From: an uncultured Candidatus Saccharibacteria bacterium
GTDB taxonomy: Bacteria; Patescibacteriota; JAQUNI01
Assembly: GCA_964555185.1 (NCBI GenBank)
Contig: CAZKRD010000002.1
Coordinates: forward strand, 120,438-184,437
Length of the DNA: 64,000 nt
Direction: 5' to 3'
Positions 4,904 to 59,673 of this stretch are shown one piece after another (the stretch's first letter is position 1; each line of letters starts with the position of its first letter). A program made the position numbers and the translations under genes. Below the pieces are notes generated by a model. The model had not been told where the DNA came from. It saw only the letters and a program-made list of their open reading frames with translations, and ran no database searches.

Positions 4904-4919
4904 TTTTTTAGAAAACTAA

Positions 4920-13720: not shown

Positions 13721-13827
13721 ACTGGCTATTTAATGTCAAATTTCAAAATCCAAATGACCAAAATTTGGCATTTGACATTTAGATTTGATTTGACATTTAT
13801 CATTTGAAATTTGAAATTTATTAACGG

Positions 13828-14866: not shown

Positions 14867-16342
14867 TTAGGTTTTTGTTTTTTTAAAGTCAATAAGATGG
14901 CCAATGACGGCTTTCGCTCCCCGGCCAAAGTATCTAAGATCGTCAAGATTACGGATTGAGATCACTTGGCGGAAGATAAATTCGGGATCAAAGGCTACCC
15001 TATAGGTTTTTTGGACTAATTCTTGCAGTTTTTCCTCTGAGATTGGACTTTTCATAATCGCTTCACGCATATCGTAGCGATTCCAGTCCAAGGTCTTAAG
15101 CCAGCCCCGCTCTTTGCATTCTGAAAAAAGCGGGGTGCCTGGATAAGGAATCACGATTGTTGCCTGCAGGGTTTTGGCATACCCTTTGCGTAAGAGGTAA
15201 CAGCCCAATTTCATAGTTGCGCGTGCGTCTTCCTCTTTTTCCCAAGAGTAACCGAACATAATGGTTAAGTGAGGAGAGAGTCCGGCTTTAGCCGCCCTTC
15301 GGCAAGACTTTATAATTTTCTCGACGGTCATATTTTTATTGATTCTATCTAAGGTTTTCTGGCTGGCCGATTCCAAACCAAAGAGCAGAAAACGGAAGCC
15401 CGCTTCTCTCATTAATTGATAGCCTTTGCTATCCACAGCGTCAAACCGTAGATTACAATCCAAGACCATTTTTTGATTGTAACCCTTTTTGATCATCCCT
15501 TGACAGAAGCTTTGAAGCCATTTTCCTGTTGGTAGAGTGCCGGAGTCTTCCATAATTTCTCGGACACCTAAATTAATTAATCTGCCCACTTCTTCTACGG
15601 CCAATTCCGGACTTCTTGTTCTGTGAGTCCCTGGTGGAAAAAGAATGTGATTCCAGGAACAGAAAGTACACTTGCCCCACCAGCAGTCGCGGCCGCTCAT
15701 CATATAAGTACCGGGCGTGCGTGAGAAATTGCCATTCTGATAAGCATAGAGTTGCCATTTGGTCAGTTCGCGGTCAATAAAAGGGAGAGAGTCAAGGTTG
15801 TGATTTAATTGAAAAGGGCCTGTGTTTTTAATCTTTCCGTTTTCGCGAAACCAAAAGCCAGGTTTAAGCTCCTTCCCTTTCGAAAGATGATTAGCAAGAT
15901 TTAAGAGCATAAAGTCATAGTCGCCGCCGGTTAGGATATAGTCAACAGAAGAGTTCTCCAAGGATTCTTTAGGTAAAGATGTAACATGGTCACCCATCAG
16001 GGTAATTTCCAATTTCCAATTTCCAATTTCCAAATTTTTCTTTTTCAATTCGTCAATTATTTTCCAGTGATGCTTTACGGTTGGAGTTTTGGTTTCAATC
16101 GCGACGAGATCGGGTTTTTCTTTCAATATCCTTTTTTTCCATTCAGGGTAACTTAATTTTTCCGCGATACCGTCATCCCAAAAAATACCATACCCTTCTT
16201 TTTTTAACAGAGTAGCGGCATAGGCCGGCACCATTGGATAGATATAGGTGCAGGAGGAAAAAGTCTGATATTGCCGGTTTTGGCCGATCATCGGCGTCCC
16301 TTGTATTTTCGGCAGGGGTGGATAAGATATCGCAATTTTCAT
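14867..16342 (-). CDS. Class B (cobalamin-binding) radical SAM enzyme with atypical Cys spacing
   Basis: 491 aa. B12-binding-like N-terminus. The cluster motif is SGRDCWWGKCTFCSW, a CX4CX2C rather than CX3CX2C. It contains an in-frame (AATTTCC)x4 heptanucleotide repeat. Confidence 0.65.
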   Translation of the reverse strand: MKIAISYPPLPKIQGTPMIGQNRQYQTFSSCTYIYPMVPAYAATLLKKEGYGIFWDDGIAEKLSYPEWKKRILKEKPDLVAIETKTPTVKHHWKIIDELKKKNLEIGNWKLEITLMGDHVTSLPKESLENSSVDYILTGGDYDFMLLNLANHLSKGKELKPGFWFRENGKIKNTGPFQLNHNLDSLPFIDRELTKWQLYAYQNGNFSRTPGTYMMSGRDCWWGKCTFCSWNHILFPPGTHRTRSPELAVEEVGRLINLGVREIMEDSGTLPTGKWLQSFCQGMIKKGYNQKMVLDCNLRFDAVDSKGYQLMREAGFRFLLFGLESASQKTLDRINKNMTVEKIIKSCRRAAKAGLSPHLTIMFGYSWEKEEDARATMKLGCYLLRKGYAKTLQATIVIPYPGTPLFSECKERGWLKTLDWNRYDMREAIMKSPISEEKLQELVQKTYRVAFDPEFIFRQVISIRNLDDLRYFGRGAKAVIGHLIDFKKTKT

Positions 16343-17334: not shown

Positions 17335-17458
17335 TTAGTTCAAAGTTTAAAGTTCAAAATTCAAAGTTTAGTTCAAAATTCAAAGTTTTTAGTTTCACAA
17401 CTTTAAACTTTTGACTGTAATTTTTAACTTTTCACTTTGTACTTTGAACTGTTGAATT

Positions 17459-22970: not shown

Positions 22971-23003
22971 TTTTTATCAAATTCAAAATTTCACCGATTC
23001 TAG

Positions 23004-23252
23004 GTGATCACCCGGAATTGGTGGCATGATTCAAAAGGCATGATTCCAAATTCCCAATTTAAAAGAAAACTTTTTTATCAAATAATTTATGATCTATTCA
23101 TCATCGCTTTTGTGTTTTATCTGATTTTTATTTGGATTGATCGCGCTTTTAAAGATTATATCAGTCAGTATTTTAATCTTAATATTGTTTTGGTGATTGT
23201 TTTTGTCGCCGGCTTTTTGACCGTGATCCACAGAGCTAAAAAGAAAAAATAA
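23004..23252 (+). CDS. Small membrane protein, 2 TM
   Basis: 82 aa with two hydrophobic helices. Confidence 0.3.
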   Translation: MITRNWWHDSKGMIPNSQFKRKLFYQIIYDLFIIAFVFYLIFIWIDRAFKDYISQYFNLNIVLVIVFVAGFLTVIHRAKKKK

Positions 23253-25367: not shown

Positions 25368-25412
25368 TTTAAATTGTTACAGCATTGACCGATCGGTCAG
25401 TTTTGTAACGTT

Positions 25413-25892
25413 TTATTTTTTAAACAAGATTCCTCCTAAGGGATGGTAGGTAAAGACAATAAAACAAACCAGGAAAATTAAGAAGAGGAGAGTGATGATG
25501 AGAATAGAGATGCAATTGGGTTGAACCTTAGCAAGATAGTATTCTAAAATTTGGGCGATGATTATAGCCAGAGCCACGCTCAAAGCGCTCAAGGTGAAGC
25601 CTTGAGGGAAAATAAGCATAAAGATTACAACCAGGATCGGGACGGCTACAATCGCGGCAAGTTTGCCAAAAAAGATATTGTCTTGTTCGCCAAATTTGGG
25701 GATCAGGAATTCAATCAAGCCATAGATCAGCACAGCCCAGAAGGCAATTTTGGCAATTTCAAAAATGCTGCCATTATTTGCGCAGAATAATTTAGTTCCG
25801 CCGCAGTAGCGCAGAAAGGAGACCAGAAAGAGGATAATAATCACAGCGAGGATTTTGTAAAGGAGCAGTTTCTTCCGAGATAGTTTTTTCAT
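25413..25892 (-). CDS. Small polytopic membrane protein
   Basis: 159 aa, 4-5 TM helices. Confidence 0.35.
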   Translation of the reverse strand: MKKLSRKKLLLYKILAVIIILFLVSFLRYCGGTKLFCANNGSIFEIAKIAFWAVLIYGLIEFLIPKFGEQDNIFFGKLAAIVAVPILVVIFMLIFPQGFTLSALSVALAIIIAQILEYYLAKVQPNCISILIITLLFLIFLVCFIVFTYHPLGGILFKK

Positions 25893-27308: not shown

Positions 27309-27470
27309 TTTTTTAGGGATATAATTTTTAATTTCTAATTTTTAATTCTTAATCAATGTTTAATTTTTAATGATTTAATTTTTAAACAAGATAAGTTAGA
27401 AACAATAGAATGTTTAAAAATTAAAGCATTAAAAATTGATTAAAAACTAAAAATTAAGAATTAAAAATTG

Positions 27471-28367: not shown

Positions 28368-28409
28368 GCATTAAAAGGAGTTTAAAAATTAAAAATTAAG
28401 AATTAAAAA

Positions 28410-29804
28410 TTAGTTTAGGTACTCTTCTAACGCTTCTTCCCATCTCCGCAGTTTCGGCAGCTTGGTATTGATTAAAACCGAACACAAGGGCCGCTTTGCT
28501 TTTGTCTCGTATTCCCGGCTGCTGATTGGCTTTATTTTAACCGGAATGTTTTTCAAAGCGAAAATTTTGCGCGCGAACTGATACCAATTAGTTTTTCCTT
28601 GGTTTGTGACGTGATAAATGCCAAAGGGCTTGTTTTGTTCAATAAGCTGTTTTGTCTCTCGAGCTAAATCACGGGCAAAGGTAGGCTTCCCCCACTGGTC
28701 ATTGACGACCTTCAGTTTAACATTGCTTTTTGATAATTGCAACATTTTTTTAACAAAATTTTCTCCTCTCTTGCCAAACATCCAAGAGCTGCGGATTAGG
28801 TAGTATTGATCAGTATTGCGCCGCAAGAGCGCCTCGCCCAAGAACTTTGATTTTCCATAGACATTGATTGGGTTGGGCTGGGCGGTTTCTTTATAACCCT
28901 TGCGATTTTTACCGTCAAAGACATAATCCGTGGAGTAGTGGACTAAAGTTGCGTTTATTCTTTTGGCAATTTGCGCTAAATACCCTACCGCTTTACCATT
29001 TATCCGCAAAACCTGCTTTTGGTTTGATTCGGCCCTTTCTACGTTAGTATAGGCAGCAGCGTTGATAATGATTGCTGGTTTAAGTTCCAGGATTCTTTGC
29101 TGTAGTTTTTTCTTGTTGGTAATATTTAATTTTTTCTTGTCCCAGGCGGTTAGCCTGTAGTTTTGAAATTCTTTTTTTAAGCACGAGCCAAGCATGCCTC
29201 GGGCGCCCAAGATCAAGACTTTTTTTTGAAAATTTGCAAGCAGTTTGTTGCGCGCCCGCACCAAGTCAGGATGGAGCCCCCTCTCTTTTTTGATAATCTG
29301 TTTCATATTTTCATCAAAAGCATTAAGCAGGGCTTGGTCTAGAGATTTGGAAGCTATTTTCAGGATGATTTTTGAGCCAGCCCAAATTTTGGGAGTGGGC
29401 GCGATAATATCCGAGAGATAAATAATTTTATCCAGGAAACTCATACAGGGTTTAGGCACGCAGTGCCTCTCAATTGCTTGGAGGATTTCTTTGTCGTGAA
29501 TGCCAAACTTTTTTCTAGAAAGGGATGCGCCGACAGGCGCATGGAGAAGGCTTGGATGGTTTTTGGTAAAGGAATCAATTTTGATCCGAAATTTGCAAGC
29601 GAGTTTCAAAAGTCTTTCTGAATTTAAATCACGCGCCATATCATGGATCAGGCCGGCAAGACGGACTTTTTCTAGGTTGATCCCTTTGTGGATCCGGGCC
29701 AATTTCTCCGCTGTTTTTACTACTTCCAAACTATGAAAAAATCTATCCCTCGATAGATTCCGCTGCAGGTAAGATTTGATTCTTTCTAGGTTTAAATCAT
29801 TCAT
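28410..29804 (-). CDS. rmlD: Fusion of a YqeK-type HD hydrolase (N-terminal) with dTDP-4-dehydrorhamnose reductase (C-terminal)
   Basis: N-terminal ~190 aa: HSLEVVKTAEKLA...AGLIHDMAR...IERH (YqeK/HD family). C-terminal: VLILGARGMLGS...YSTDYVFDG...NVYGKSK...DQWGKPT (RmlD). Confidence 0.7.
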   Translation of the reverse strand: MNDLNLERIKSYLQRNLSRDRFFHSLEVVKTAEKLARIHKGINLEKVRLAGLIHDMARDLNSERLLKLACKFRIKIDSFTKNHPSLLHAPVGASLSRKKFGIHDKEILQAIERHCVPKPCMSFLDKIIYLSDIIAPTPKIWAGSKIILKIASKSLDQALLNAFDENMKQIIKKERGLHPDLVRARNKLLANFQKKVLILGARGMLGSCLKKEFQNYRLTAWDKKKLNITNKKKLQQRILELKPAIIINAAAYTNVERAESNQKQVLRINGKAVGYLAQIAKRINATLVHYSTDYVFDGKNRKGYKETAQPNPINVYGKSKFLGEALLRRNTDQYYLIRSSWMFGKRGENFVKKMLQLSKSNVKLKVVNDQWGKPTFARDLARETKQLIEQNKPFGIYHVTNQGKTNWYQFARKIFALKNIPVKIKPISSREYETKAKRPLCSVLINTKLPKLRRWEEALEEYLN

Positions 29805-29837: not shown

Positions 29838-29997
29838 ATTAATTTTCAATTTTCAAATCCCAATTTTCAATCAAATCCCAATTTTCAAATAGATTTAATT
29901 TTCAAACCTGCGAAAATGGTTTTGTTTGAAAATTTATTCATTGGTTATTGAAAATTGATTAGTAAATTGGTACTTGAAAATTGAAAATTAACTACTC
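29838..29997. repeat. MITE-like AT-rich intergenic repeat, copy A (inverted relative to copies B and C)
   Basis: The reverse complement begins GAGTAGTTAATTTTCAATTTTCAAGTACCAAT..., which is identical to the start of copy B. Internally it consists of AATTTTCAA/TTGAAAATT words. Confidence 0.7.
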
Positions 29998-30992
29998 TAT
30001 TTATGCTTATATTGCTTTCGATAGTATTTAAGATATTCTCCCGACTTGATCTTCTTCCACCACCATTCATTCTCTTTGTACCATTCTATGGTTTGCCGCA
30101 TCGCTTCTCCAAATTGATATTGCGGCTGCCAGCCCAGTTTCTGAACCTTAGTAGAATCCAGGGCGTAACGGCGATCATGACCCGGCCGGTCGGAAACCCG
30201 CTTAATCATTTCTTTGCCTTTGCCCAAAGTCTTCAAGATTAGATTGGTGATGTAAAGATTGGTTTTTGGATTATCACCGCCAATATTATAAATCTCCCCT
30301 ATTTTGCCTTTGTGGAGAACAAGATCTAAGGCAGAGCAGTTATCTAAAACATAAATCCAATCACGGACATTTTTGCCATCACCGTAAAGCGGCACCTTTT
30401 TTCCTTCAATGAGATTGGTGACGAAAAGAGGGATTAGTTTTTCCGGGTATTGATAAGGCCCAAAATTATTAGAGCTTCTCGTGATCAAAACCGGCAAACC
30501 AAATGTGCGGTGATAAGCGCGGACCATCAAATCCCCTCCTGTTTTGGAAGCAGAATAGGGATTGTTGGGAGCAAGCTCGGTTTTTTCAGTTGCTTTTCCG
30601 CGAGCCAGACTGCCGTAAACTTCATCCGTGCTTACCTGTAAATATTTCTTAATTTTGAATTCTTTTACTGCTTCCAATAAGTTTTTCGTGCCCAAGATGT
30701 CTGTGCGAATAAAGTCATCCGCGCCCATAATTGAGCGATCCACATGGGTTTCTGCAGCGAAGTTTACAATCATATTCACATTGCGAGCCGCTTGTTTCAC
30801 TGTTTTCCAATCCGCGATATCTCCTTTGACAAATTTATAGCGCGGGGTTTTGATCCCCCGTAGATTGTCTAGATTGCCGCAGTAAGTCAGTTTGTCTAAA
30901 TTAACCACGCGGTAGCGCGGGTATTTTTTTAAAATATAGCGGATGAAGTTGGAACCGATAAAACCCGCGCCGCCGGTTACGAGTAATTTCAT
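29997..30992 (-). CDS. rmlB: dTDP-glucose 4,6-dehydratase
   Basis: LVTGGAGFIGSNF, YSASK, 331 aa, classic RmlB. Confidence 0.85.
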   Translation of the reverse strand: MKLLVTGGAGFIGSNFIRYILKKYPRYRVVNLDKLTYCGNLDNLRGIKTPRYKFVKGDIADWKTVKQAARNVNMIVNFAAETHVDRSIMGADDFIRTDILGTKNLLEAVKEFKIKKYLQVSTDEVYGSLARGKATEKTELAPNNPYSASKTGGDLMVRAYHRTFGLPVLITRSSNNFGPYQYPEKLIPLFVTNLIEGKKVPLYGDGKNVRDWIYVLDNCSALDLVLHKGKIGEIYNIGGDNPKTNLYITNLILKTLGKGKEMIKRVSDRPGHDRRYALDSTKVQKLGWQPQYQFGEAMRQTIEWYKENEWWWKKIKSGEYLKYYRKQYKHK

Positions 30993-31546
30993 AATATTTT
31001 TTTGTGGAGACAGTATTTATAAAGGAGGGCTAGAGTTGGTGAACCGATAATCTTATTTTCGATAATCATTTTTTGGATCTCTTTAAGACTAAATTTTTTT
31101 ACTTCCGAGATTTCAGAAGGATCGGGAATTTTATCAATTTTTTTTAAGTCTTGAGCAAGATAAATATAGGAATATTGCGGCAAGACAGTTCCTGATACAT
31201 AGGAGATGCCAATTTTGGTCCACTTTTGAGCAGAAAGGCAAGCTTCTTCCTCGAGTTCCCTTTTGGCGGCATTCAGATAGGTTTCTCTTTTTGAATCTTT
31301 GTGTCCCATGGGCAATTCCCAGGTATATTCCCCCAAAGTGTAGCGATACTGACGGACAAGCCAGAGTTTTCCATTTCTGTCTTCAGGGATGATTGCGACA
31401 AAGGGATCTTTTTTAATATAGTAATAGTTTGTTTTGCGTCCTAAAGGGTTCAACACCTGGTCCTTGTAAAGATCAAGATAAGCGCAGTGGTAGATCCGGC
31501 GAGAGGAAATTTTTTGCCAAGGCTGTTTTTGATGGATTTTCGGCAT
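30989..31546 (-). CDS. NUDIX hydrolase (sugar-nucleotide/ADP-ribose pyrophosphatase-like)
   Basis: NUDIX box ...GHKDSKRETYLNAAKRELEEEA... Its stop overlaps the rmlB start by 4 nt. Confidence 0.6.
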   Translation of the reverse strand: MPKIHQKQPWQKISSRRIYHCAYLDLYKDQVLNPLGRKTNYYYIKKDPFVAIIPEDRNGKLWLVRQYRYTLGEYTWELPMGHKDSKRETYLNAAKRELEEEACLSAQKWTKIGISYVSGTVLPQYSYIYLAQDLKKIDKIPDPSEISEVKKFSLKEIQKMIIENKIIGSPTLALLYKYCLHKKIL

Positions 31547-31603
31547 TGTTAATTTTGATTAACTATATCTTAGTTTAACAAGAGAGGAATTTTTCGACAA
31601 GAA

Positions 31604-31778
31604 GAGTAGTTAATTTTCAATTTTCAAGTACCAATGTACTAATCAATTTTCAATTTACAAGTACCAATTTTCAATCAATTTTCAATAACCAATGACTAAA
31701 TGTTCAAACTGTTTGAAAATTAAATCATTGAACCTTAGGATTTGATTGAAAATTGAGATTTGTAAATTGAAAATTAAT
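31604..31778. repeat. MITE-like AT-rich intergenic repeat, copy B
   Basis: About 125 bp are ~95% identical to copy C and form an inverted match to copy A. It lies between the rmlC stop and the NUDIX start. Confidence 0.7.
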
Positions 31779-31784
31779 ATCCTC

Positions 31785-32240
31785 TTATCCCATCTTAATC
31801 CCCCAACCATACGGAACCAGTTCAGTATCATAAGGCAGGCGGTATTCATCTGGTTTCTCTGGATTGTAGGGATGGGTTGGCGTATTGATGATTAGAGCTT
31901 CTTCTTCGGACACGCATTTCCAGCCGTGATAAACCTGTTTTGGGATTTGAATTAAACTCGGATTGTGCTCGCCGATAAAAAATTCATTGATTTCTCCCAA
32001 AGTCCGGGATCCGATCCTGCCGTCATAGAGGACAAGCTTGATCATGCCGCGCAGGCAGCAAATAGAATCGGTTTGGACTTTATGCAGATGCCAAGCCTTA
32101 ACCACGGAAGGGTAAGTGGTCGTTAAATAGACTTGACCGAATTTCTCGAAGATTTCATCATCAGAGCGCAGGATCTCCATCACCCGGCCCCGTTCGTCAG
32201 GATGAATTTTAAGTTTTTTAGTTTTGACGCCGGAAATCAT
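31785..32240 (-). CDS. rmlC: dTDP-4-dehydrorhamnose 3,5-epimerase-family cupin (short form)
   Basis: 151 aa. ...AWHLHKVQTDSICCLRGMIKLVLYD... is an RmlC-like cupin core. Confidence 0.6.
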   Translation of the reverse strand: MISGVKTKKLKIHPDERGRVMEILRSDDEIFEKFGQVYLTTTYPSVVKAWHLHKVQTDSICCLRGMIKLVLYDGRIGSRTLGEINEFFIGEHNPSLIQIPKQVYHGWKCVSEEEALIINTPTHPYNPEKPDEYRLPYDTELVPYGWGIKMG

Positions 32241-41861: not shown

Positions 41862-42671
41862 TCACTGCGGCTTCCACTGGGCTGTTGCGAGCACCGATGT
41901 GATTACGATCACAGCAATACTGAAATAGACCTTGATCAATTTTCTGGTCAGAGCTTCCCGTGAATAGTGTTCTAGGATACCTAAGATGATGTAAAAACTG
42001 GCCATCAGGACAATGCTGTTTGCAATATAATTGGTCGGCCAAAAGCTCAATGACCAGAAGATTTGGGCGAGACCCAAAGAAATCACATTGGCATAGACCA
42101 AAGCTCTTCTTGGTGGAAATATTTCACTAAGGAATTGCCAGGCAAGCAGAAAGATGATTACTACAGCGACAATCAGCGTCTGCCAAATCGCGAAAGAAAG
42201 GAGATAGATTATACCAAAAAGACTGCTTAAAGCAAAAAAAGCAGTTAGGAGGATTAGGGCTTGATTGACGGTTAGAATAATTCTTCTTCTTTTGTCTTGT
42301 TCTGATTTCAAGATTACCTGCTTTTTGCTTTCAGCATGATAATGGCTCAAAACAGAGATATTATTCAAAACAATAGCCAAAACAATACTGATCCCAAAAA
42401 GAAAGATGTGCTGGGTTAAGCTTTTTTGGGCGAGGACAAAAAGAGAGAGACTGGCTAATGTATAAAGAGTTGGCAGAATCAGGTAGGAGAGCTTTTTTAA
42501 TTTTTTGGTCTGCCAAAATCCACTCAAATAAAGAGAGGATAAAATCACGACCGCGATTAAAATAATAAAAAGCCACCAGAATAGTTCTGGCTTCTGGATT
42601 ATCGTTTCCATTATAGCGAACATAGCGAGAACAGGAATCGCAATCGCGGTTTTGGAGAGAAAAGCGCTCAT
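41862..42671 (-). CDS. Polytopic membrane protein of unknown function
   Basis: 269 aa with about 8 TM helices. Its start overlaps the valS stop by 4 nt. Confidence 0.4.
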   Translation of the reverse strand: MSAFLSKTAIAIPVLAMFAIMETIIQKPELFWWLFIILIAVVILSSLYLSGFWQTKKLKKLSYLILPTLYTLASLSLFVLAQKSLTQHIFLFGISIVLAIVLNNISVLSHYHAESKKQVILKSEQDKRRRIILTVNQALILLTAFFALSSLFGIIYLLSFAIWQTLIVAVVIIFLLAWQFLSEIFPPRRALVYANVISLGLAQIFWSLSFWPTNYIANSIVLMASFYIILGILEHYSREALTRKLIKVYFSIAVIVITSVLATAQWKPQ

Positions 42672-45001
42672 AACTCAATATTTTTAGTTAAAAATTCCAC
42701 AATTTTTTTTTGTTCTTCTGGCAGATTAAGTTTTACTTTTCTTTTTTCTGTCCGGATTCTGGTTACGGCTTCCTGAATTCTGTTAAATTCTTTTTCTACT
42801 TTTAGATTGCGGTATTCTTTTTGGAATTCTGGCCAAGGGCTGACAATTAAATCCGTCTTTTCCAGTTTTTGGTATACCTCTTCAGTGATAAAAGGAATAA
42901 AGGGGTGGAGCATCCTTAAGCTGTCTTTCAGGACTGTTCTTAAAACAAAATTTACTTTTTTGGACTCTTTTTTTGTTACAGAATTGGACGATCGTCCAGA
43001 TTTGTAACGTTTGCTTTTTTGCTGGTTGTAAATTCTCTGTTTTGCGATTTCTAAATACCAATCACAGAGTTCATTCCAGAAAAAGCGGTAGAGTCTTCTT
43101 GCCGCGCGGGCAACCTGATAGGTTTCTAAGGAATCACTAACTTTTTTGATTGTATAATGCAGGCGAGAAAGAATCCACTGATCGCTTGGGTGGCTTGAAG
43201 GTTTTTTTGGTTTTTGTGCCGGTTTTGTGTTGTGAATAACAAATTTAGACGCATTATGGACTTTGGTTGTGAAGTTGCGGCCGGCTTTAATCGCGTCTTC
43301 CATTGCCTGTTTGCTCATTGCGATATCGCGGCCCGGGTAGGCCATTCGGGCAAGGGCGAAGCGCAAGGAGTCGGCAGAATATTTTTGAATCATCAATAAA
43401 GGATCCACGCCGTTGTTTAGCGATTTGCTCATCTTGCGCCCTTGTTCGTCGCGGAGCGTGCCATGGATAAAGACCGTTTTAAAAGGCGCTCTCTTTCCGA
43501 ATTTGATTCCCAAGATAATCATTCGGCAGATCCAAAGATAAAGAATACCCGGGGCAGTGATCATCAGGTCAGAGGGGTAATATTTTTTAAGATCAGCGCT
43601 TTTGCGGTCAGGCCAGCCCAAGGCTGAAAGAGGCCAGAGGCCTGATGAAAACCAGGTATCTAAAACATCGGTTTCTTGTTTGATTTTGCTCCCGCCGCAT
43701 TTTGGGCATTTTTTTGGTTTTTTAGCACTCACAATCGGCGGGCATTTTTTCTCTTTGCAATAATAGACTGGCATTGGATGGCCCCAGACAAGCTGGCGGG
43801 AGATGCACCAGTCATGGATATTGGAAAGCCAGAGAAGAGCTTGTTTCCCATACCTTTCCGGTAGGAATTTAACATCGCCTTTTTTGATTGCTGTAATTGC
43901 AGGTTTTGATAACCCTTTCATTTTTACAAACCATTGTTTCGAGATTTGGGGTTCAATAATACTCTTACAACGTTCACAAAAAGCAACCGAATGTTTAATC
44001 TCTTCTGTCTTTTTAAGGTAGCCTTGTTTTTGAAGATCATTAATCACAATCTGCCGTGCTTGATTGACAGATAGACCATTGTATTTCTCTGGCACATTGA
44101 TCATTTTGCCATCGCGATTAATCACTAGAGGTTTTTCCAAGTTATGGCGCTCTCCAATTTCATAGTCAGTTAGATCATGAGCAGGTGTTACCTTAACCGC
44201 CCCTGTGCCGAATTTAGGATCAACCACTTGGTCTGTCACAATCGGGATTTTGCGGTTAACTAGAGGCAGAGTCACTTTTTCGCCAACCAGATCTTTGTAA
44301 CGTTTATCATCTGGATGGACAGCTACAGCTGTATCTCCTAGCATAGTCTCTGGTCTTGTGGTCGCGACTGTAATTTTTTGATCCTCGTTTAAGGGATAGT
44401 CAATATAGTAGAGTTTGCCCTTTTGTTCTTTGTATTCTAATTCTAAGTCTGTGATCGCGGTGTTGCATTTGGGGCACCAGTGGACAATGTAGCGGCCGCG
44501 ATAAATCAGTTTGTCACGGTAAAGGCGGATAAATTCTTCCTGCACTGCCTTGCATGGACCGGGATCCAAAGTAAAGGTTTTGCGGGACCAGTCAGCTGAC
44601 TCGCCCAAGGCTTTTGATTGCTCTAGAATCTTTTTTTCATAAATCCGCGCCCACTTCCAAATGTATTTTAGAAATTCCTTCCGCCCCAGATCCTCATGTG
44701 TTTTACTCTCTTCTTTTTGGAGTTTTTTCTCCATTGTTCCCTGCATTTGAATACCGGCATGGTCAACACCGGGCAGCCACAGGGTGTCAAAACCCTGCAT
44801 TCTTTTGGCGCGAATTAAGATATCCGTGATCGTGTGCTGCAGAGCATGGCCTAGATGGAGTTCGCCGGTTAGGTTTGGCGGCGGCATAATCATCACAAAA
44901 GGCTTTTTTTTGGATCGGTTATTGGCGCGAAAATAATTTTTTCGGTGCCAATAATCATACCACCTTTTTTCAGTTTTAGAAGGATTATATTTTTTATCCA
45001 T
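42668..45001 (-). CDS. valS: Valyl-tRNA synthetase
   Basis: HIGH-like PPPNLTGELHLGHA, KMSKS, 777 aa with an editing domain. Confidence 0.9.
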   Translation of the reverse strand: MDKKYNPSKTEKRWYDYWHRKNYFRANNRSKKKPFVMIMPPPNLTGELHLGHALQHTITDILIRAKRMQGFDTLWLPGVDHAGIQMQGTMEKKLQKEESKTHEDLGRKEFLKYIWKWARIYEKKILEQSKALGESADWSRKTFTLDPGPCKAVQEEFIRLYRDKLIYRGRYIVHWCPKCNTAITDLELEYKEQKGKLYYIDYPLNEDQKITVATTRPETMLGDTAVAVHPDDKRYKDLVGEKVTLPLVNRKIPIVTDQVVDPKFGTGAVKVTPAHDLTDYEIGERHNLEKPLVINRDGKMINVPEKYNGLSVNQARQIVINDLQKQGYLKKTEEIKHSVAFCERCKSIIEPQISKQWFVKMKGLSKPAITAIKKGDVKFLPERYGKQALLWLSNIHDWCISRQLVWGHPMPVYYCKEKKCPPIVSAKKPKKCPKCGGSKIKQETDVLDTWFSSGLWPLSALGWPDRKSADLKKYYPSDLMITAPGILYLWICRMIILGIKFGKRAPFKTVFIHGTLRDEQGRKMSKSLNNGVDPLLMIQKYSADSLRFALARMAYPGRDIAMSKQAMEDAIKAGRNFTTKVHNASKFVIHNTKPAQKPKKPSSHPSDQWILSRLHYTIKKVSDSLETYQVARAARRLYRFFWNELCDWYLEIAKQRIYNQQKSKRYKSGRSSNSVTKKESKKVNFVLRTVLKDSLRMLHPFIPFITEEVYQKLEKTDLIVSPWPEFQKEYRNLKVEKEFNRIQEAVTRIRTEKRKVKLNLPEEQKKIVEFLTKNIEL

Positions 45002-45123: not shown

Positions 45124-46281
45124 TTGAAATCTATGGCTAAGAAATTAAAAGTCGGCGTTCTTTTTGGCGGTAAATCAGCAGAACACGAGGTCTCCTTGGT
45201 TTCCGCCCAGTCAGTGATTGAAAATTTGAATAAAAATAAATACGAAGTGATTCCGATTGGAATCACTCGGGAAGGCAAATGGATTTCTGCTGGCAAGCCC
45301 CTGGAATATTTGAAAAAAGGTCGAAAGAATAAAATCCGTAAAAATGCTCTACCGGGCGTTAGAAAAAATAACGTAGGGGCGCGCCGTGGCGCGCCCGCTT
45401 CAGAGCTTGCCACAACAGCGCGCGTGAAAAATTACCCAAAAATAGACGTTATTTTCCCGGTGCTTCATGGTACTTATGGTGAAGACGGTACGGTTCAAGG
45501 GTTTTTAGAGCTTGCTGATATCCCCTATGTCGGAGCTGGTGTTTTAGGATCGGCGTTGGGCATGGATAAGGTGATTCAAAAGAAGCTTTTCAAAGCGCAT
45601 AATTTGCCCGTGGTTCCCTGTTTAGCTTTTGCCCGTAAACAGATTTTAGAACGCCTGGATCCGGAGGTGGTAAAAAAGATTGAAAGAGAGTTAGGCTATC
45701 CTTGTTTTACTAAGCCGGCGAACCTCGGTTCTTCAGTGGGTATTTTTAAAGCGCATACGAGAAGAGAGCTCCAATATATGATTAAAAAATCCGCGCGCTT
45801 TGACCGCAAAATCATTGTGGAAAAGGCCGTACCCAACGCGCGCGAGATTGAGGTTGCGGTTTTAGGCAATGGCGATCCAGGGGTTTCGGTCTGCGGCGAG
45901 ATTATTTCCTCTAACGAGTTCTATGATTATGATGCCAAGTATGTTGACGGTAAGAGTAAAGCGATTATTCCGGCCAAAATTTCAAAAAGAGTAAGTAACA
46001 AGATTCGCGAGATCGCAAAAAAAGCTTTTTTGGCCTTGGATTGCGCTGGCATGTCCCGAGTGGATTTTTTGGTGGACGGTAAAACCAATAAGATTTATCT
46101 AAGCGAACTGAACACGATCCCTGGTTTTACTTCAATCTCAATGTATCCCAAACTCTGGCAGGCGTCCGGTCTTTCCTATCCTCGTCTTTTGGATCAACTG
46201 ATCCGGCTTGCCATGGCTCGTCACTGCGATAAACAAAAAACCGAAACCATGGTACAATTAAAAAAGGATTGGTATCGGTGA
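45124..46281 (+). CDS. ddl: D-alanine--D-alanine ligase
   Basis: MKSMAKKLKVGVLFGGKSAEHEVSL, ATP-grasp motifs, ...ELNTIPGFT.... The N-domain loop carries a GC-only palindromic insertion. Confidence 0.85.
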   Translation: MKSMAKKLKVGVLFGGKSAEHEVSLVSAQSVIENLNKNKYEVIPIGITREGKWISAGKPLEYLKKGRKNKIRKNALPGVRKNNVGARRGAPASELATTARVKNYPKIDVIFPVLHGTYGEDGTVQGFLELADIPYVGAGVLGSALGMDKVIQKKLFKAHNLPVVPCLAFARKQILERLDPEVVKKIERELGYPCFTKPANLGSSVGIFKAHTRRELQYMIKKSARFDRKIIVEKAVPNAREIEVAVLGNGDPGVSVCGEIISSNEFYDYDAKYVDGKSKAIIPAKISKRVSNKIREIAKKAFLALDCAGMSRVDFLVDGKTNKIYLSELNTIPGFTSISMYPKLWQASGLSYPRLLDQLIRLAMARHCDKQKTETMVQLKKDWYR

Positions 46282-46720
46282 TGAATTATGAATAATGCCA
46301 CCAATTCCGGGTGGTCACCTAGAATCGGTGAAATTTTGAATTTTGAGTTTTGAATAAATCAAAATAAAATATGGGCGTTATTAGCCATCGAGAAATAGGT
46401 ATGGTCAGAAGGTATGCAAGCACAAGCAATTAGCACAAAACGAAGTTCAAATTTGCCTCTTAGAGGAAGCTGAAAGACAATTAGAAATATTTGTTAAATA
46501 TGCCACGGATTATTTTAACAAGCGACATAGTTCTTTTGGGGCTGAAATTATTAGTAAACACAAAGAGATTTTAGAGATTATTCAAGAGGTTTTGAAAAAT
46601 AAAAAAAGAAAGCTATCAACAAAGACGGTAAGATCAAGAGACCGCACGGGGATTTTTAAGCTAATTACAGATTGGAGCAGCCAGCAGCGGGCTTTCGAGA
46701 TAGCAGCTTGAATTTTTGGG

Positions 46721-47010: not shown

Positions 47011-48267
47011 TTAATGTACGGCGCAGGTAATGCAAAGGTCATAGGCGCGGATCAGCATTTTGATCGCTTGTTTCTGTTTTTTAAGATGGCTTTTTTCTGC
47101 TAAGAATCCCTCCAGATCGTATTCAAGGTTAAGTAAGAATTGGGCAGTCGGGGTAATGATATTGCAGTCGCGGATTTTGCCGCGAGCATCAATCCGGTAA
47201 TAATGAAAGAGGAGGCCGCGAGGCGCTTCATTCACTGCCAGTCCTTCCCCTGCTTTCAGCTTGTATTTTTTGTCTGCCTTATTTTTGATTTTTAAAGATT
47301 GAAGCAACTTTTTAGTCTGTTCAATGCAGTGGATAATTTCAATCATCTGGGCCAGAAGATTATAAAAAATATTGTAACAGGGCAGTTCAAACTGCGCCCT
47401 GCTTACTGCCCGCCGCGCTTCTGGATTTAGTTTTTTGTAACTCAAATTAATCCGGGCCAGGGCGCCGACAAGATAAGCATCCTCTTTGAGTTTGACTTTT
47501 TTGACTGGGTCCTCTTCCATCTCCTGAATTTCGGAAGCGGCTTTTAAGAATGCTTTAGCTGTATATTTTTTGTTTTTTGATGTTTTAATTCTGCCTTGAT
47601 CCAGAGCATATTCGCTTAGATCGTCCAGGCCCACGAAGGTGGTGAGCCGGGCAAACTGGGGAAAGGTTAGGTTGTTTAAGAAATCAAAGAGCTGGTTTGC
47701 TGTTTCCAAATTGCTTTCAATTTGATCCAGGATTTTTTGAAGATCAGATTTTTTAGGCAGGACCCGAAAGCCGCCAATTGTGGTTGTGGTCGGGTGGATG
47801 TCGCGGCCGCCAATTAGATTCAGGATCAAGTTGCCAAAGTCGCGGATCTCGATTGCGGCTCGGGCGATTTTTGGATTGATTTTTGCTAGGGTCAGGTCGC
47901 TTTTCAGATTGAAAAAATCCCCCAAAGCTAAGAAGTAGATGTGGGTCATATGGCTTTGGATTTGCTGGCCTAAAAGCATTAGTTTGCGCAGGATGATAGT
48001 CTGCTCGCTTGGCCGGACGGCCAATGCCGCCTCCAAGGCTTTAATTGAGGTTAGGTTGTGGACAGTCGGACAAATGCCGCAAATCCGAGAGGTGATCCAA
48101 GGCGCTTCTGTCCATGGACGACCCAAAAGCAAGCCTTCAATAAACCGCGCTCCTTCCTTGACTTCAATCCGCGCTTTTTTTATCCGACCCGCTTCTAAAT
48201 TTCCAACAAAACCGGCATGACCCTCGATCTTATTTATTTCGTTTATTTTAATTGTTACCTTTTCCAT
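47011..48267 (-). CDS. [NiFe] hydrogenase large subunit (group 3b sulfhydrogenase alpha-like)
   Basis: N-terminal RICGICPTVH and C-terminal DLCITCAVH, the Ni-Fe ligating CxxC pairs. 418 aa. Confidence 0.8.
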   Translation of the reverse strand: MEKVTIKINEINKIEGHAGFVGNLEAGRIKKARIEVKEGARFIEGLLLGRPWTEAPWITSRICGICPTVHNLTSIKALEAALAVRPSEQTIILRKLMLLGQQIQSHMTHIYFLALGDFFNLKSDLTLAKINPKIARAAIEIRDFGNLILNLIGGRDIHPTTTTIGGFRVLPKKSDLQKILDQIESNLETANQLFDFLNNLTFPQFARLTTFVGLDDLSEYALDQGRIKTSKNKKYTAKAFLKAASEIQEMEEDPVKKVKLKEDAYLVGALARINLSYKKLNPEARRAVSRAQFELPCYNIFYNLLAQMIEIIHCIEQTKKLLQSLKIKNKADKKYKLKAGEGLAVNEAPRGLLFHYYRIDARGKIRDCNIITPTAQFLLNLEYDLEGFLAEKSHLKKQKQAIKMLIRAYDLCITCAVH

Positions 48268-48332
48268 TTTTGGTTTTGCTGAAAATAAAAATTAAATAAA
48301 AATTAAAAAATAAAAATTACGGATTGTAAAAA

Positions 48333-49061
48333 TCATTTTCTGTTCCCAAAAATTTCCAGTATCCTCTGATATTCTTTGATCCCTACCATTTTTTTCATTT
48401 TTTCTAAATTTGGTTCGTCTATTAATCCGCGGCATCCAGTGCAGCCAAGTCCGCCGCGGAGACAGACAGCCCCGCACCCGCCCCGGATGATCGGTCCAAG
48501 ACAGGTTTTTCCAGCGAGAAGCAGACAAGAGTACTGCTTGATTTGACATTCATAACAGACGGGCCGATTAGGAAGATAAGGTTTTTGACCATAGGCCAGC
48601 TGTTTTAAAACCTCCAAAATTTCTTTGCCTTCCGGCGGGCAGCCGGGGATTACAAAGTCAACTGCTGTATAAGCGGAAAGCGGTTTTATTTTCAGATTAT
48701 CAATTCTTTTGCTTTGGGGGTAAACATATTTTGCGATTTCGCTTTTTTTGCCGTAATTTTTTATTGCCTGAACACTGCCCAAATGGGCGCAAGCGCCCAA
48801 GGCGATTAAGGTTTTGCTTTTCGCCCGGAGATTTTCTAGTTTCTCCTTTTCTTCTTTGCGGACTACATTGCCTTCTATAATTGTGATGTCGATTTTTAAA
48901 TCCTTTTTCATCTCTTCATCTTCAATCAGGTGAAAATCGATCAACTCGAATTCGTCTAAAACTTCAAAAAGTTCCTGGCCCAGATCCAAGGCAGTAAAAA
49001 GACAGCCATTGCAGGAAGTAAGAGAGGTGATGATTAAAGATTTTTTTGTTTTGTTTTTCAT
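48333..49061 (-). CDS. [NiFe] hydrogenase small subunit (sulfhydrogenase delta-like)
   Basis: ...ITSLTSCNGC..., GACAHLG, GCPP, CYEC, and multiple Fe-S Cys clusters. Confidence 0.75.
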   Translation of the reverse strand: MKNKTKKSLIITSLTSCNGCLFTALDLGQELFEVLDEFELIDFHLIEDEEMKKDLKIDITIIEGNVVRKEEKEKLENLRAKSKTLIALGACAHLGSVQAIKNYGKKSEIAKYVYPQSKRIDNLKIKPLSAYTAVDFVIPGCPPEGKEILEVLKQLAYGQKPYLPNRPVCYECQIKQYSCLLLAGKTCLGPIIRGGCGAVCLRGGLGCTGCRGLIDEPNLEKMKKMVGIKEYQRILEIFGNRK

Positions 49062-49070
49062 TGTTGGCGC

Positions 49071-49856
49071 TTACTTCGAGAACGGTATTTTTTTGTTTTG
49101 ATCTAAATTTAATTTGAAATTTTTTTCTAGGATTTTTCCTGCCCCCGGGTTTTTGCTTTCGGCAATGATTGAGGAAAGCAAATCAAACCGGTAAAGTCCG
49201 GGCTTGCCAAAGTCAATTGTCTCCTTGTTTTGTTTAGAAACCTTAGTGAGGTATTCAATTTGTTTTTGCTTGCTTTCTAATTTTTGAGCAAGCAAGACAA
49301 GCCTTTGGTTTGCGCTTGAATCTATGATTACGCCGAAGTGATGGAAAACATTCTGATTTTTTTTGATTTCCAGATCTCTCGGGACAAAGGCGTTTTTGAA
49401 GATTATTTTTTTTGTCTGAAAGCCGTATTCTAAATCCGCCAAAGTATTGTTGCTTACGGTCCGCAAGTTGGTTGTCTTGCAGACGGTTAAAATATGAGCA
49501 AGGGCATAAGCCGGAGAATAAACCTTTTCAATTTCATTTTCGGACAGAGCGATCTGGTGGTCAATAGCAAAGCAGTCTAAGATATCTTGATCGCGGAGCA
49601 AGGTTTTCCCGTGTTTCTCGGCATAAAAACTGATTGTATTCGGGAAGGCGGTCAGGATGTGCTTTGAAAGAGTAGAGAGTTTAACCGGCGACTGCTTGAT
49701 GAATTTTTTAAGATCGGTTGTGTTAACACAAAAAGGATGCAGGAAGAGCTTGCTTACAGTCTTCACTGCTCTTTCGGTTAGCTTTATTTTCTCAAAATTA
49801 GGCAGGGTTTTTTTTCTGTTTTCATTTAGCTTTTGGATAAGGTCTTCTTTGACCAT
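49071..49856 (-). CDS. Hypothetical protein inserted in the hydrogenase gene cluster
   Basis: 261 aa with no recognisable motifs. Confidence 0.3.
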   Translation of the reverse strand: MVKEDLIQKLNENRKKTLPNFEKIKLTERAVKTVSKLFLHPFCVNTTDLKKFIKQSPVKLSTLSKHILTAFPNTISFYAEKHGKTLLRDQDILDCFAIDHQIALSENEIEKVYSPAYALAHILTVCKTTNLRTVSNNTLADLEYGFQTKKIIFKNAFVPRDLEIKKNQNVFHHFGVIIDSSANQRLVLLAQKLESKQKQIEYLTKVSKQNKETIDFGKPGLYRFDLLSSIIAESKNPGAGKILEKNFKLNLDQNKKIPFSK

Positions 49857-50728
49857 AGTCTGTGTTGAAAAATGACAAGATAGACACCTAAAGAGAGAAG
49901 GATAATCCCCAAGATTTTTAAAGGTAGTATTGTCTGGTCGATAAAGACCAAAGAGAGCAGGGCGGTAAGCGGGGCGCCTAGTGATAGGATCGCGGTCGCG
50001 GTGAAGGCAGGAATGTATTTTAAGCCGTTATAAAACGTGATGACATAAGCAAACAGAATTATACTGCTGATCACAATCCAAATGTATTGCCCTAGAGAGT
50101 CACCTGGGATCATATTAGATAATCCTTGTTTTGCGATTAAGAAAATCAGGATGAAAATTGTGCCAAAAAACATTCTGCCCCAGGCCACGGTAAAAGCGGA
50201 AAGATTTTTCAAGAGCTTTTTAGAGAGCGCGATTTCAAAAGCCCACATCATTGTCGCGATTAAAATTAGAAAGTCTCCTCGGTTGAAGGCCTCTGGTCTG
50301 TATTGGAAATAACAGATACTGCCAGAGAGGATAACAAGCGCGGCAATCAGTTCGTATTTATTTATTTTTTTCTTTAGGAAAATCCAGGAGATCGGAATCA
50401 GCCAAACAAAGAGGGTTTTATGGAACAAGCTGGCTTGAGCCGCCGAGGTGATGGCCAAACCCTTAAAAAACAGCAAGAAAGGGATTGAGCCGCCGATCAG
50501 GCCAACCAGAATCAGTGTCAGCCAGTTTTTGTTTGTTAGGGATTTGAATTCTTTGAGACGGTAGATCAAAAGAATGGCGGTTGTTAGCAGGAGCGCGACA
50601 ATCAGGTTTTTAGCAAAGGTGAAGAAGTAAGGGTCAAGACCTTTTACTCCCCATTTGTTCAAGAAGATCGCAAAGCCGGAAATGACGGCGGCGGTTAAGA
50701 CTAATAGAATACCTTTGGTGGATTTCAT
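49826..50728 (-). CDS. EamA/DMT-family transporter
   Basis: 10 TM helices, two EamA-like halves, 300 aa. Confidence 0.65.
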   Translation of the reverse strand: MKSTKGILLVLTAAVISGFAIFLNKWGVKGLDPYFFTFAKNLIVALLLTTAILLIYRLKEFKSLTNKNWLTLILVGLIGGSIPFLLFFKGLAITSAAQASLFHKTLFVWLIPISWIFLKKKINKYELIAALVILSGSICYFQYRPEAFNRGDFLILIATMMWAFEIALSKKLLKNLSAFTVAWGRMFFGTIFILIFLIAKQGLSNMIPGDSLGQYIWIVISSIILFAYVITFYNGLKYIPAFTATAILSLGAPLTALLSLVFIDQTILPLKILGIILLSLGVYLVIFQHRLWSKKTLSKS

Positions 50729-50805
50729 AATTTTTTAATTTCAAATTTCAAAATCTAAATGTCAAATCAAACTCAAAGTTCAAAATCAAAAAGATTGCAA
50801 ATTTG

Positions 50806-51021
50806 TCATTTGGATTCGGCTTGGTATTTTAAGTGTTTTATTAACCGAAATATATTTCGAGCTTGTTTAGTGGATAGTTTGCCAATAATTAGACTGTTTT
50901 GCTTCAAGATCCAATCTCCTTTTTTAACTGAAACCAAAGAAGAATCAAGGGTGTCTCCTTGTTCTGATTTTGCTTGATTTCCTTTTATTTGAGTTATTTT
51001 TTGAGGTAAAGCAAAACACAT
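50806..51021 (-). CDS. Small hypothetical protein
   Basis: 71 aa, Lys-rich. It abuts the repeat copy C. Could be spurious. Confidence 0.2.
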   Translation of the reverse strand: MCFALPQKITQIKGNQAKSEQGDTLDSSLVSVKKGDWILKQNSLIIGKLSTKQARNIFRLIKHLKYQAESK

Positions 51022-51023
51022 GT

Positions 51024-51230
51024 TAGTTAATTTTCAATTTTCAAGTACCAATGTACTAATCAATTTTCAATTTTCAAGTACCAATTTTCAATCAATTTTC
51101 AATAACCAATAACTAAATGTTCAAACTGTTTGAAAATTAAATCTATTTGAACCTTCGTCCCGAGCTCAGGTCGAGGGAAATTATGATTTGATTGAACATT
51201 GGTCCTTGTAAATTGGTAATTCAAACAATA
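51024..51230. repeat. MITE-like AT-rich intergenic repeat, copy C, carrying a nested GC-rich hairpin insertion
   Basis: It shares ~125 bp with copy B. The element is interrupted at 51152..51180 by CGTCCCGAGCTCAGGTCGAGGGAAATTA and resumes with GATTTGATTGAA.... Confidence 0.7.
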
Positions 51231-51242
51231 TTTTCAACCTTG

Positions 51243-52052
51243 TCAGATGACATCAGGGATATTTTTAATTTTTTCCCAAGCAAACACCGGTCCGTCTTGG
51301 CATACATATTTTCCATTGACCAGGACGCAGTGCTGACAGACGCCAATCCCGCAGTGGATCCGGCGCTCCAAGGACAGATAGATGTTTTTGTCTTTGAATT
51401 TTAATTTTTTTAACCTCTCCAAAACAAATTTATACATAACAGGCGGGCCAACCACGAAAGCAAGGGCTTGTTTTAGAGTTTTATGTTTATCGAATAAAGT
51501 GGTGATTACGCCTACATTGCCGCGCCAACGGGGCTGGCACTGGTCCAAGGTGACTCGGACATCAATTTTGTTTTTGCGCCAGGCCGGAAACTCTTTTTCA
51601 AAGATACGATATTCCTCGCATCGGGTTCCATAAAAAAGTTGTACTTGCCGGTAAGCCCGCCTTTTGCTGATGATGCTTTTTATTACTGAACGGAGAGGAG
51701 CAAGACCAATGCCGCCAGCCACAATCAGGAGATTCTTTTGAGAGATTTTTTCCAAAGGAAAACCATGGCCATAGGGTCCGCGGGCGCCGATTAGATCTCC
51801 TTTTTTTAATTTGAAAAGCGAATCAGTTAAAACCCCTTTCTCTTGGACCGTGATTTGGAATTGTTTGGAATCGTATTGGCTGGAACAAAAAGCAAAGGGA
51901 GCTTCTCCCACTCCAGGCAAAGAGATTTCTGAAAACTGGCCTGCTGTAAAATGGATTTTTTTCTCTGGTTTGATTGTGAAGACTTTTACATTAGGAGCGT
52001 CGCAATAGACGTTTAATATTTTTGCTTTTTGCGGGATGAGGTCGTTTTTCAT
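51243..52052 (-). CDS. Sulfhydrogenase gamma-like subunit (FAD/NAD(P)-binding oxidoreductase with a 2Fe-2S site)
   Basis: Ferredoxin-reductase-type fold. C-terminal CGIGVCQHCV cluster. Confidence 0.75.
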   Translation of the reverse strand: MKNDLIPQKAKILNVYCDAPNVKVFTIKPEKKIHFTAGQFSEISLPGVGEAPFAFCSSQYDSKQFQITVQEKGVLTDSLFKLKKGDLIGARGPYGHGFPLEKISQKNLLIVAGGIGLAPLRSVIKSIISKRRAYRQVQLFYGTRCEEYRIFEKEFPAWRKNKIDVRVTLDQCQPRWRGNVGVITTLFDKHKTLKQALAFVVGPPVMYKFVLERLKKLKFKDKNIYLSLERRIHCGIGVCQHCVLVNGKYVCQDGPVFAWEKIKNIPDVI

Positions 52053-54064: not shown

Positions 54065-54157
54065 AACTTTAATGCAAAAATCAAAATGTAATTCAGAATG
54101 TAAAAATAATTTTGCATTTTACATTTTCATTTTGACCTTTGCATTTTGATTTTTGCA

Positions 54158-57029: not shown

Positions 57030-57145
57030 AGTAGCATTTTTTAATTTCCAATTTCCAATTCTCAATTTCCAATGAATTTTTAATGTTTAAATTTTCAATA
57101 ACAATAAAATGTTTAAAAATTCATTCATTAAAAATTGAATCAAAA

Positions 57146-59580: not shown

Positions 59581-59673
59581 GAATTTAAATCAAAAGTCAA
59601 AATGCAAAAATCAAAATGAAAATGTAAAATGTAAAATTTCCTGACGTAAATTATTATTTGGAATTTGTAATTT

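Follow-up and report, generated by a model that had tools for sequence, protein, structure and literature searches.

What are the three similar, non-coding segments, here called A, B and C, that lie between genes in a stretch of 64,000 nucleotides (the window) from an uncultured Candidatus Saccharibacteria bacterium (contig CAZKRD010000002.1)? A and B bracket the rmlB and NUDIX genes in inverted orientation, and C lies in a hydrogenase gene cluster. A sequence-only reading took them for a MITE (a miniature inverted-repeat transposable element). The element is MITE-like in its form and turnover; it is better described as part of a family of heptamer hairpins that lack an open reading frame (ORF), are associated with the S23p protein and resemble the intervening sequences (IVS) of 23S rRNA. 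At a probability of roughly 70%, A, B, C and a fourth, more diverged copy (Table 1) are ORF-less members of a widespread, palindromic, intergenic and S23p-associated family.

The homology of the three copies and their boundaries were as the sequence-only reading had described them, and so were the positions that it gave for the rmlB and rmlC stop codons and the NUDIX start. B and C are 98% identical over a 120-nt stretch (31607-31726 versus 51024-51143). A is inverted relative to B; as the reverse complement it aligns with B from end to end, with a local score of 191 versus 96 in direct orientation. The two share an identical terminus of 33 nt (AGAGTAGTTAATTTTCAATTTTCAAGTACCAAT), and their far ends match at about 90%. 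In both B and C the left terminus is duplicated as a further 33 nt (31612-31644 in B; 51029-51061 in C). Copy A consists of the core and a subfamily extension; this extension, AGTAGTT, adjoins the stop codon of rmlB, and the loop of A is of the CAAACAAAACCATTTTCGCAGGTTTG type. Copy B has the rmlC stop on one side and, on the other, a conserved promoter-like block that is situated upstream of NUDIX; copy C contains a nested GC-rich palindrome at ∼51148-51178.

The 24-mer AATTTTCAATTTNCAAGTACCAAT is present without mismatch in A, B and C; with up to three mismatches it occurs nine times in the window, versus zero times in 100 shuffles. We also built a profile hidden Markov model (HMM) from 62 short elements, none of them in the window but a few on contigs of the same sample. 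It matched A, B and C over the full length (model positions 1-118; E=5e-20, 3e-22 and 1e-19), each more strongly on one strand, and scored five further window hairpins marginally; the shuffled window gave no match. These matches and the empty shuffles bear out that the copies have unique termini and recur elsewhere, beyond low-complexity likeness. With the 24-nt terminus and the full-length profile match that define the family with AATTTTC arms, the window copies belong to it.

On folding, A (z=-7.3) and B (z=-7.5) each give an imperfect hairpin of ∼65 bp. The fold of C is weaker (z=-2.9) because of the insertion in it. The window copies measure 149-207 bp and hold at most a 17-codon ORF, within the MITE range of under ∼600 bp without coding capacity; the whole length of each copy is an imperfect palindrome, which provides the terminal inverted repeats of a MITE. 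The copies are dispersed and polymorphic in insertion, again as in MITEs. Besides the four copies in 64 kb, the subfamily is present in at least 12 contigs of the window's own sample (SDBT01 assembly). The earlier description as non-coding, internally palindromic and multi-copy was thus borne out.

The family is not confined to this organism. The exact 24-mer was found in 27 loci of 20 species-representative metagenome-assembled genomes (MAGs) of GTDB, nearly all of them Patescibacteria, i.e. the candidate phyla radiation (CPR); taxonomy is as named in the records, with binning taken as given. Their names include Roizman-, Gottesman-, Kuenen-, Falkow-, Yanofsky-, Wildermuth-, Nealson- and Peribacteria, as well as Moraniibacteriota, Paceibacterota, Saccharibacteria, the Parcubacteria group and the Patescibacteria group; the 24-mer is also present in one Gammaproteobacteria, two Bdellovibrionales and two unclassified "bacterium" MAGs. 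More than 116 JGI metagenome contigs contain it. A scan of viral contigs for the 24-mer gave 0 matches, and nothing points to a phage vector. The GC content of the hosts ranges from 27% to 56%. A, B and C are one local subfamily of this family, which is spread across many CPR phyla. No description of it in CPR bacteria was found in the open-access literature, and the family of AATTTTC-arm hairpins is apparently undescribed. With the gathering score Rfam gave no match in the window, and at E<=1 only sub-threshold plant miRNA-hairpin noise on B.

In each of these loci a heptamer hairpin is bounded on its outer side by the 24-mer, with unrelated sequence upstream. The main length cluster of the elements is 100-145 nt, with a tail to ∼270 nt that comes from nested GC-rich hairpins; a second mode is at ∼420-500 nt. 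The left arm is composed of the units AATTTTC AATTTTC AAGTACC AATTTTC AATG..., and the complementary arm reads ...CATTGAAAATTG..GAAAATT. Copies also have non-repetitive features in common, namely AAGTACC, the apex CAATGACTAAATGTTCAAAC, the 33-nt duplication and the loop of A. For 42 members, the fold of one member was projected onto their alignment; 85.5% of the cells were standard pairs, versus 26-57% when the partner was slid by 1-3 columns. Both sides had changed in 17 pairs, versus 9.5±1.5 in shuffles, and the outer helices were 92% paired across the 42 members. RNAalifold found no consensus structure on a MAFFT alignment because the heptamer registers shift. In a strand-asymmetry test for a hairpin acting at the RNA level, the RNA folding energies of the two strands were alike (p=0.2).

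The longer members link the family to S23p. In L017, L020 and L022 an ORF continues from the left arm, and its stop codon is the point where the right arm starts. The intact ORF of L022 is 121 residues in length; it matches PF05635 (1.5e-14), TIGR02436 "four helix bundle protein" (2e-19) and PDB 2RLD. The four-helix-bundle S23p proteins of PF05635 are related to Avd of diversity-generating retroelements. An S23p ORF or pieces of one were present in 16 of the 149 elements collected; the ORF is intact in some, contains a stop codon in one and an insertion in another, and is reduced to its last 41 codons in L023 and L043. A full-length member (∼420-500 nt) carries an S23p ORF of ∼120 residues between its arms; the ATG lies in the last heptamers of the left arm, and the TGA stop is the first heptamer of the right arm. 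Short forms, B among them, keep the ATG region (CCAATGACTAAATGTTCAAAC versus CCAATGAATCAATTTACAAAC) joined to the first units of the right arm; therefore, we read them as internal-deletion derivatives. All three S23p genes that were found by protein similarity alone lie between the same kind of arms, with the TGA within TTGAAAATT, so the link between S23p and the arms is independent of the search route. The S23p subfamily has at least 7887 protein matches at E<=1e-20, and the named ones among the matches listed are from CPR lineages. One locus from the same metagenome (L114) holds three short copies together with an intact S23p gene. Directly downstream of the S23p-bearing element of L022, at 4730-5000, we observed another, divergent ORF whose N-terminal motif (…SFMDLEIYQQALAASV…) is S23p-like; the two would be tandem four-helix-bundle genes.

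S23p is under strong purifying selection. Between copies dN is 0.02-0.3 and dS is saturated; omega is ∼0.02-0.1 where computable. The right arms are 82% identical on average; for conserved four-fold codons of the ORFs next to them, identity at the third position is only 39%. Since the arms are better conserved than synonymous sites, the arm sequence itself is constrained, and the conservation across phyla therefore does not come from recent transfer alone.

To follow the elements between genomes, the syntenic loci of relatives were fetched via rmlB and RtcB homologues. The amino-acid identity of rmlB to the window is 96% in L146, 89% in L149, 83% in L147 and 79% in L152; that of RtcB is 93% in L160. 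The best matches with a named source are Patescibacteria, at 68% identity for RtcB and 64-68% for rmlB, which makes a CPR bacterium the probable host of the window. Site B was covered in L146, L147 and L152, site A and the spacer between HD-RmlD and rmlA in L146, L147, L149 and L152, and site C only in L160. Site B, between rmlC and NUDIX, is empty in L146 (68-nt spacer) and L147 (38 nt), and is occupied in L152 by a member co-oriented with B. Site A, between rmlB and HD-RmlD, holds a decayed ortholog with a nested GC hairpin in L146 and different GC-rich hairpins in L147; it is empty in L149 (18 nt), and in L152 the genes overlap. The HD-RmlD-rmlA spacer is 42 nt in the window and 33 nt in L149; in L146 it is 275 nt in length and contains an A-type element, in L147 it contains a small hairpin of another heptamer flavour, and in L152 it contains no element. 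Site C, between hydG and hypC, is occupied by a family member in L160. Whole elements were gained or lost between genomes with a protein identity of 93-96%. Of the two spacers at 7030-7140 and 8538-8615 of L147, one holds a pair of GC-rich hairpins (CCCCGTTAG...CTAACGGGG) and the other a small heptamer hairpin, GGTAATT/AATTACT; intergenic sites are therefore reused by different small elements.

Near-identical copies also occur in different surroundings. Copy A is 98.7% identical to L102:1850-2004 over 155 nt, with different flanks; L085 is 94.7% identical to B, and its flanks are unrelated. The end of SDBT01001224.1 equals 123 nt of C at 100%. L081, from another assembly of the same organism, equals 49323-51150 of the window at 100% and ends inside C. 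The junctions of empty and filled sites showed no target-site duplication, at a resolution that flank divergence limits to a few nt; the flanks of 95 elements had no more than a weak bias, to T at position -1 (57%) and to A at position +1 (51%).

The placement of the elements is tight. Protein ORFs are found within 400 nt of every window copy and of each of the 149 elements collected. The elements lie between co-directional genes, and their orientation relative to these genes was ++ in 27 cases versus -- in 22. Relative to the upstream stop the element starts at -2 to +6 nt in 23 of 38 cases, and TAA often supplies the first AA of the element; it ends 0-9 nt before the next ATG in 19 of 39. 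This tight fit leaves no room for a Shine-Dalgarno sequence. A terminator scan of the arms found no intrinsic terminators. An outward-promoter role of the arms is doubtful; matches to TTGAAA-17-GAAAAT are no commoner in the arms than in shuffles.

Such placement would suit a host-selected cis-element, that is, a set of binding or processing sites (e.g. for S23p, RNase III or a translation factor) that insulate or couple genes and are homogenised by gene conversion. The purifying selection on the arms agrees with it, as do the exact fit between stop and start codons and the retention at orthologous spacers (A in L146, the spacer of C in L160, and in every relative the rmlA-UGDH spacer). For Beggiatoaceae, a proposal exists that heptamer repeats adjacent to start codons serve as regulator sites (PMC4679880). 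However, the elements turn over rapidly between relatives of 93-96% identity, both orientations are equally common, and essential operons do without them in relatives; decayed copies, half-elements and insertions nested inside elements are also at odds with sites kept by the host. We consider this explanation unlikely, although it is compatible with mobility.

Mobility of the ordinary kind would make the copies a MITE in the strict sense, a deletion derivative of an insertion sequence that an unseen transposase moves in trans by recognising the terminal inverted repeats. The small size, non-coding nature, copy number, terminal inverted repeats and indel polymorphism all agree with this, and the weak T...A preference of the flanks could be a TA target as in Correia/ERIC-type elements. 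However, pairs of empty and filled sites show no target duplication, the 64 kb contain no transposase, and the longer relatives with the same arms carry S23p in 16 of 16 cases and a transposase in none. Different from a decaying MITE, the arms have stayed conserved from phylum to phylum, although the gene that they enclose is saturated at its synonymous sites. A strict MITE is thus quite unlikely. From the sequence-only reading, the MITE assignment holds for size, inverted repeats, copies and insertion polymorphism, but not for the target duplication, which was absent both at empty and filled sites and statistically over the 95 flanks, nor for a transposase-bearing relative; in place of the cognate transposase that it proposed to look for, the longer relatives encode the PF05635 protein.

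It is very improbable that A, B and C arose in place, through heptamer slippage at stop codons followed by palindrome formation, with their likeness being shared word content. Different spacers do have different heptamer flavours, and several relatives have short runs of AATTTTT after the stop codon of HD-RmlD; some other heptamer runs could still have such an origin. For A, B and C it is contradicted by the non-repetitive features listed above, by 98-99% identity in unrelated flanks and by the zero matches in shuffles.

That A and B act as a functional pair and make NUDIX-rmlB a composite mobile or invertible cassette deserves hardly any credence: the pair is inverted with its 33 identical nt at the gene-facing ends, and a 1664-bp Logan contig ends in both repeats, but neither the place nor the orientation of the gene pair changes in L146, L147, L149 and L152, which lack one element or both, A is older and shared with L146 whereas B is not, and contig ends within repeats are the expected assembler product at identical 33-mers. 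NUDIX-rmlB is an ancestral gene pair that is bracketed by A and B and lies outside the element. As it is in place where B, A or both are missing, A and B are separate events of different age, and the inverted pair would have no function as a unit. The earlier reading of an inverted pair that brackets a cassette thus fails.

For the family reading that we favour, the following course of events is proposed. The short, ORF-less hairpins, including the window copies, derive from full-length, S23p-bearing elements through loss of the interior, as the series of deletion intermediates between the two forms shows. Such hairpins would be copied to new AT-rich spacers without a classical transposase and without obvious duplication, and S23p may be involved in the copying. 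The element would be co-transcribed with its operon and extruded as a ∼65-bp hairpin, which in the folded transcript would hold the neighbouring stop and start codons adjacent at its base; like the hairpins of 23S rRNA IVS, it would probably be cut by RNase III.

Several points weigh against this reading. The RNase III cleavage and any role of S23p are predictions. Target duplication is absent, with element boundaries uncertain by a few nt. Site B, occupied in L152, implies either loss in both L146 and L147 or two separate gains, and gene conversion between pre-existing hairpins could be the source of some of the near-identity. A master copy in this genome is hypothetical; neither transposase, reverse transcriptase nor S23p was found in the window or the next 9.5 kb of scaffold, where tblastn for S23p was likewise negative. 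Since neither strand is preferred in folding, the target of selection may be DNA instead of RNA, or RNA in both orientations. Finally, the collection was seeded with one 24-mer, which biases the picture of the left arm.

Table 1. Positions of the family members, other heptamer hairpins and adjacent features in the window
Feature	Position	Strand	Description	Profile match
Copy A	29838-29997	minus (inverted)	core hairpin 29841-29989	HMM, E=4.8e-20, minus strand
Copy B	31604-31778	plus	core 31645-31775	HMM, E=3.3e-22
Copy C	51024-51230	plus	core 51062-51221	HMM, E=1.1e-19
Fourth, more diverged copy	57043-57165	plus	hairpin; AATTTCC-flavoured heptamers	full-length nhmmer match, E=2e-8
Old heptamer hairpin	27322-27469	plus	rmlA-UGDH spacer	only marginal HMM score
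Heptamer-repeat hairpin	13729-13819	not assigned	AATTTCA/TGAAATT flavour	
Similar hairpins or half-elements	16004-16033, 17335-17450, 28382-28412, 48282-48319, 50734-50791, 54073-54157, 58606-58694, 59587-59718, 60901-61047			
HD-RmlD fusion	28410-29804	minus	464 residues	
rmlB	29997-30992	minus	stop 29997-29999	
NUDIX gene	30989-31546	minus	start at 31546	
Block TTGTCG-17 nt-TAAACT	31572-31600	minus	between B and NUDIX start	
rmlC	31785-32240	minus	stop 31785-31787	
HypC-like ORF	50806-51021	minus	71 residues; ATG 2 nt from the TAGTT end of C	

Heptamer hairpins make up much of the intergenic DNA of this genome. A period-7 signal was detected in ∼12 of the 25 window spacers of at least 60 nt. 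Tandem Repeats Finder (TRF) reported degenerate heptamer units (61-75% matches) with the unit AATTTTC and complementary arms; together with a repeat finder, it gave the flavours AATTTTT, AATTTCC, AATTTCA, ATTTTGC and AGTTCAA in the window. The old hairpin in the rmlA-UGDH spacer shares its architecture with A-C but has T for C in the left arm and A for G in the right (AATTTTT/AAAAATT); all relatives examined have kept it at this spacer. A small GC-rich palindrome (CCCTCGACCTNAG...CGAAGG) occurs three times (51148-51178, 58639-58668 and 60938-60992), where 0.1 is expected, and each of the three sits within a heptamer hairpin. Comparable nested GC hairpins interrupt members in L006, L011, L021, L026, L146 and L157; elements therefore insert into elements. 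Two further repeats were noticed in the window. One, unrelated to the heptamer family, is a 63-nt inverted repeat (…TTCACCGATTCTAGGTGATCACCCGGAATTGGTGGCATGATTC…; 22979-23041 and 46281-46343) that is 92% complementary; genes on the plus strand are few, and each copy is at the 3′ end of such a gene. The other is a 48-nt palindrome with a T-run (TTGTTACAG..GATCG..TTTGTAACGTTT; 25374-25421 and 42973-43020), 83% identical between its copies, one of which is intergenic and the other inside the anticodon-binding region of a class I tRNA synthetase ORF (42668-45001).

The block between B and the NUDIX start is weakly sigma-70-like (8/12) and is kept in L146 and L152, so B lies upstream of it. Judged from its sequence, which stays below the threshold of the promoter scan, the block would be promoter-like. 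Copy C occupies the hydG-hypC spacer in the order hydB-hydG-[C]-hypC-EamA-261 aa-hydD-hydA; the L160 ortholog of the HypC-like ORF is annotated as PF01455 (weak). C had been said to split a hydrogenase operon; it does lie inside the cluster, but this cluster also holds two unrelated genes. The cluster (47011-53005) is of the group 3b [NiFe] type and is interrupted by an EamA transporter gene and a 261-residue ORF without Pfam match; the arrangement is identical in L160. In the HD-RmlD fusion, an N-terminal HD phosphohydrolase domain is joined to RmlD, and the fusion is present in all relatives fetched via rmlB (L146, L147, L149 and L152). About 55 of the 59 ORFs of at least 100 residues are on the minus strand (630-63509), and a single long region of polysaccharide synthesis, which includes three radical-SAM genes, takes up most of the first 41 kb of the window.

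What S23p does and where rRNA intervening sequences come from have been open questions for more than 30 years. Here the S23p family lies inside a conserved heptamer hairpin outside rRNA, in many CPR phyla; what was a curiosity of a few pathogens becomes a system in which heptamer binding, RNase III cutting and transposase-free copying can be tested. In practice, the elements form a large share of intergenic DNA, break short-read assemblies and occupy the expected positions of ribosome-binding sites. A more far-reaching proposal, which we regard as doubtful, is that S23p and the heptamer arms together make up an independent unit and are the 23S rRNA IVS in its free-living form. A ring-shaped S23p oligomer would bind the heptamer arrays; the ORF-less hairpins, which number in the hundreds at gene boundaries, would be dispersed targets that spread in an S23p-dependent manner without transposase and control mRNA processing or translational coupling of operons in CPR bacteria. 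If true, this could also explain why heptamer repeats occur patchily in cyanobacteria, Bacteroidetes and Beggiatoaceae.

Among known systems, the elements Correia/NEMIS (Neisseria), ERIC/RU-1 (enterobacterial) and RUP/BOX (pneumococcal) are long-hairpin MITEs without a known transposase. They are co-transcribed with flanking genes and can affect mRNA processing; like the present family, they are imperfect intergenic palindromes of 100-170 bp with presence or absence between strains. However, these families are genus-restricted and have TA duplications, whereas the heptamer family spans many phyla without detectable duplication, and its full-length, protein-coding relatives are not insertion sequences. 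REP/BIME/REPIN elements are likewise palindromic, intergenic and multi-copy and lie at the 3′ ends of genes. REPs have GC-rich stems of 20-40 nt with GTAG/CGTC heads and are moved by an HUH (RAYT) enzyme; different from them, the AT-rich arms of the family consist of heptamers and extend over ∼60 nt, and a RAYT gene was not seen. A composite transposon or invertible cassette does not describe the locus either, as the context of NUDIX-rmlB is constant irrespective of the elements.

The heptamer direct repeats, namely the cyanobacterial STRR and the TAACTGA repeats, share the period of 7, the intergenic position and the patchy phylogenetic distribution with the family, and like it they often end a few nt before a start codon without Shine-Dalgarno sequence (PMC4679880). 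TAACTGA repeats are reported from Beggiatoaceae, Cyanobacteria and Bacteroidetes, with only one inverted case and no S23p link reported in that paper (PMC4679880). These direct repeats are near-perfect tandem arrays of one unit, whereas the family has degenerate, complementary arms with unique termini.

The closest likeness is to the IVS of 23S rRNA in Coxiella, Leptospira and others. In Coxiella the IVS combines a terminal inverted-repeat stem with an S23p ORF, and tandem heptamers (GACAGAT) are found directly upstream of the ATG of this ORF; the IVS is excised by RNase III, its ORF decays, and a mobile origin has long been suspected (PMC4990558). The family differs from the IVS in lying between protein genes rather than in helix 25/45 of 23S rRNA, in its heptamer (AATTTTC versus GACAGAT), in its many copies per genome and in the strong purifying selection on its S23p, which decays in Coxiella; RNase III cleavage is a feature of the IVS hairpin and is predicted for the family. 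In the remaining features the two agree: a long inverted-repeat stem with a PF05635 ORF in the loop, heptamers directly 5′ of the ATG, decayed and ORF-less forms, and a sporadic distribution that suggests mobility. The IVS plan, a stem with an optional S23p ORF preceded by heptamers, is thus found at the level of the family, and the window copies represent its ORF-less form.

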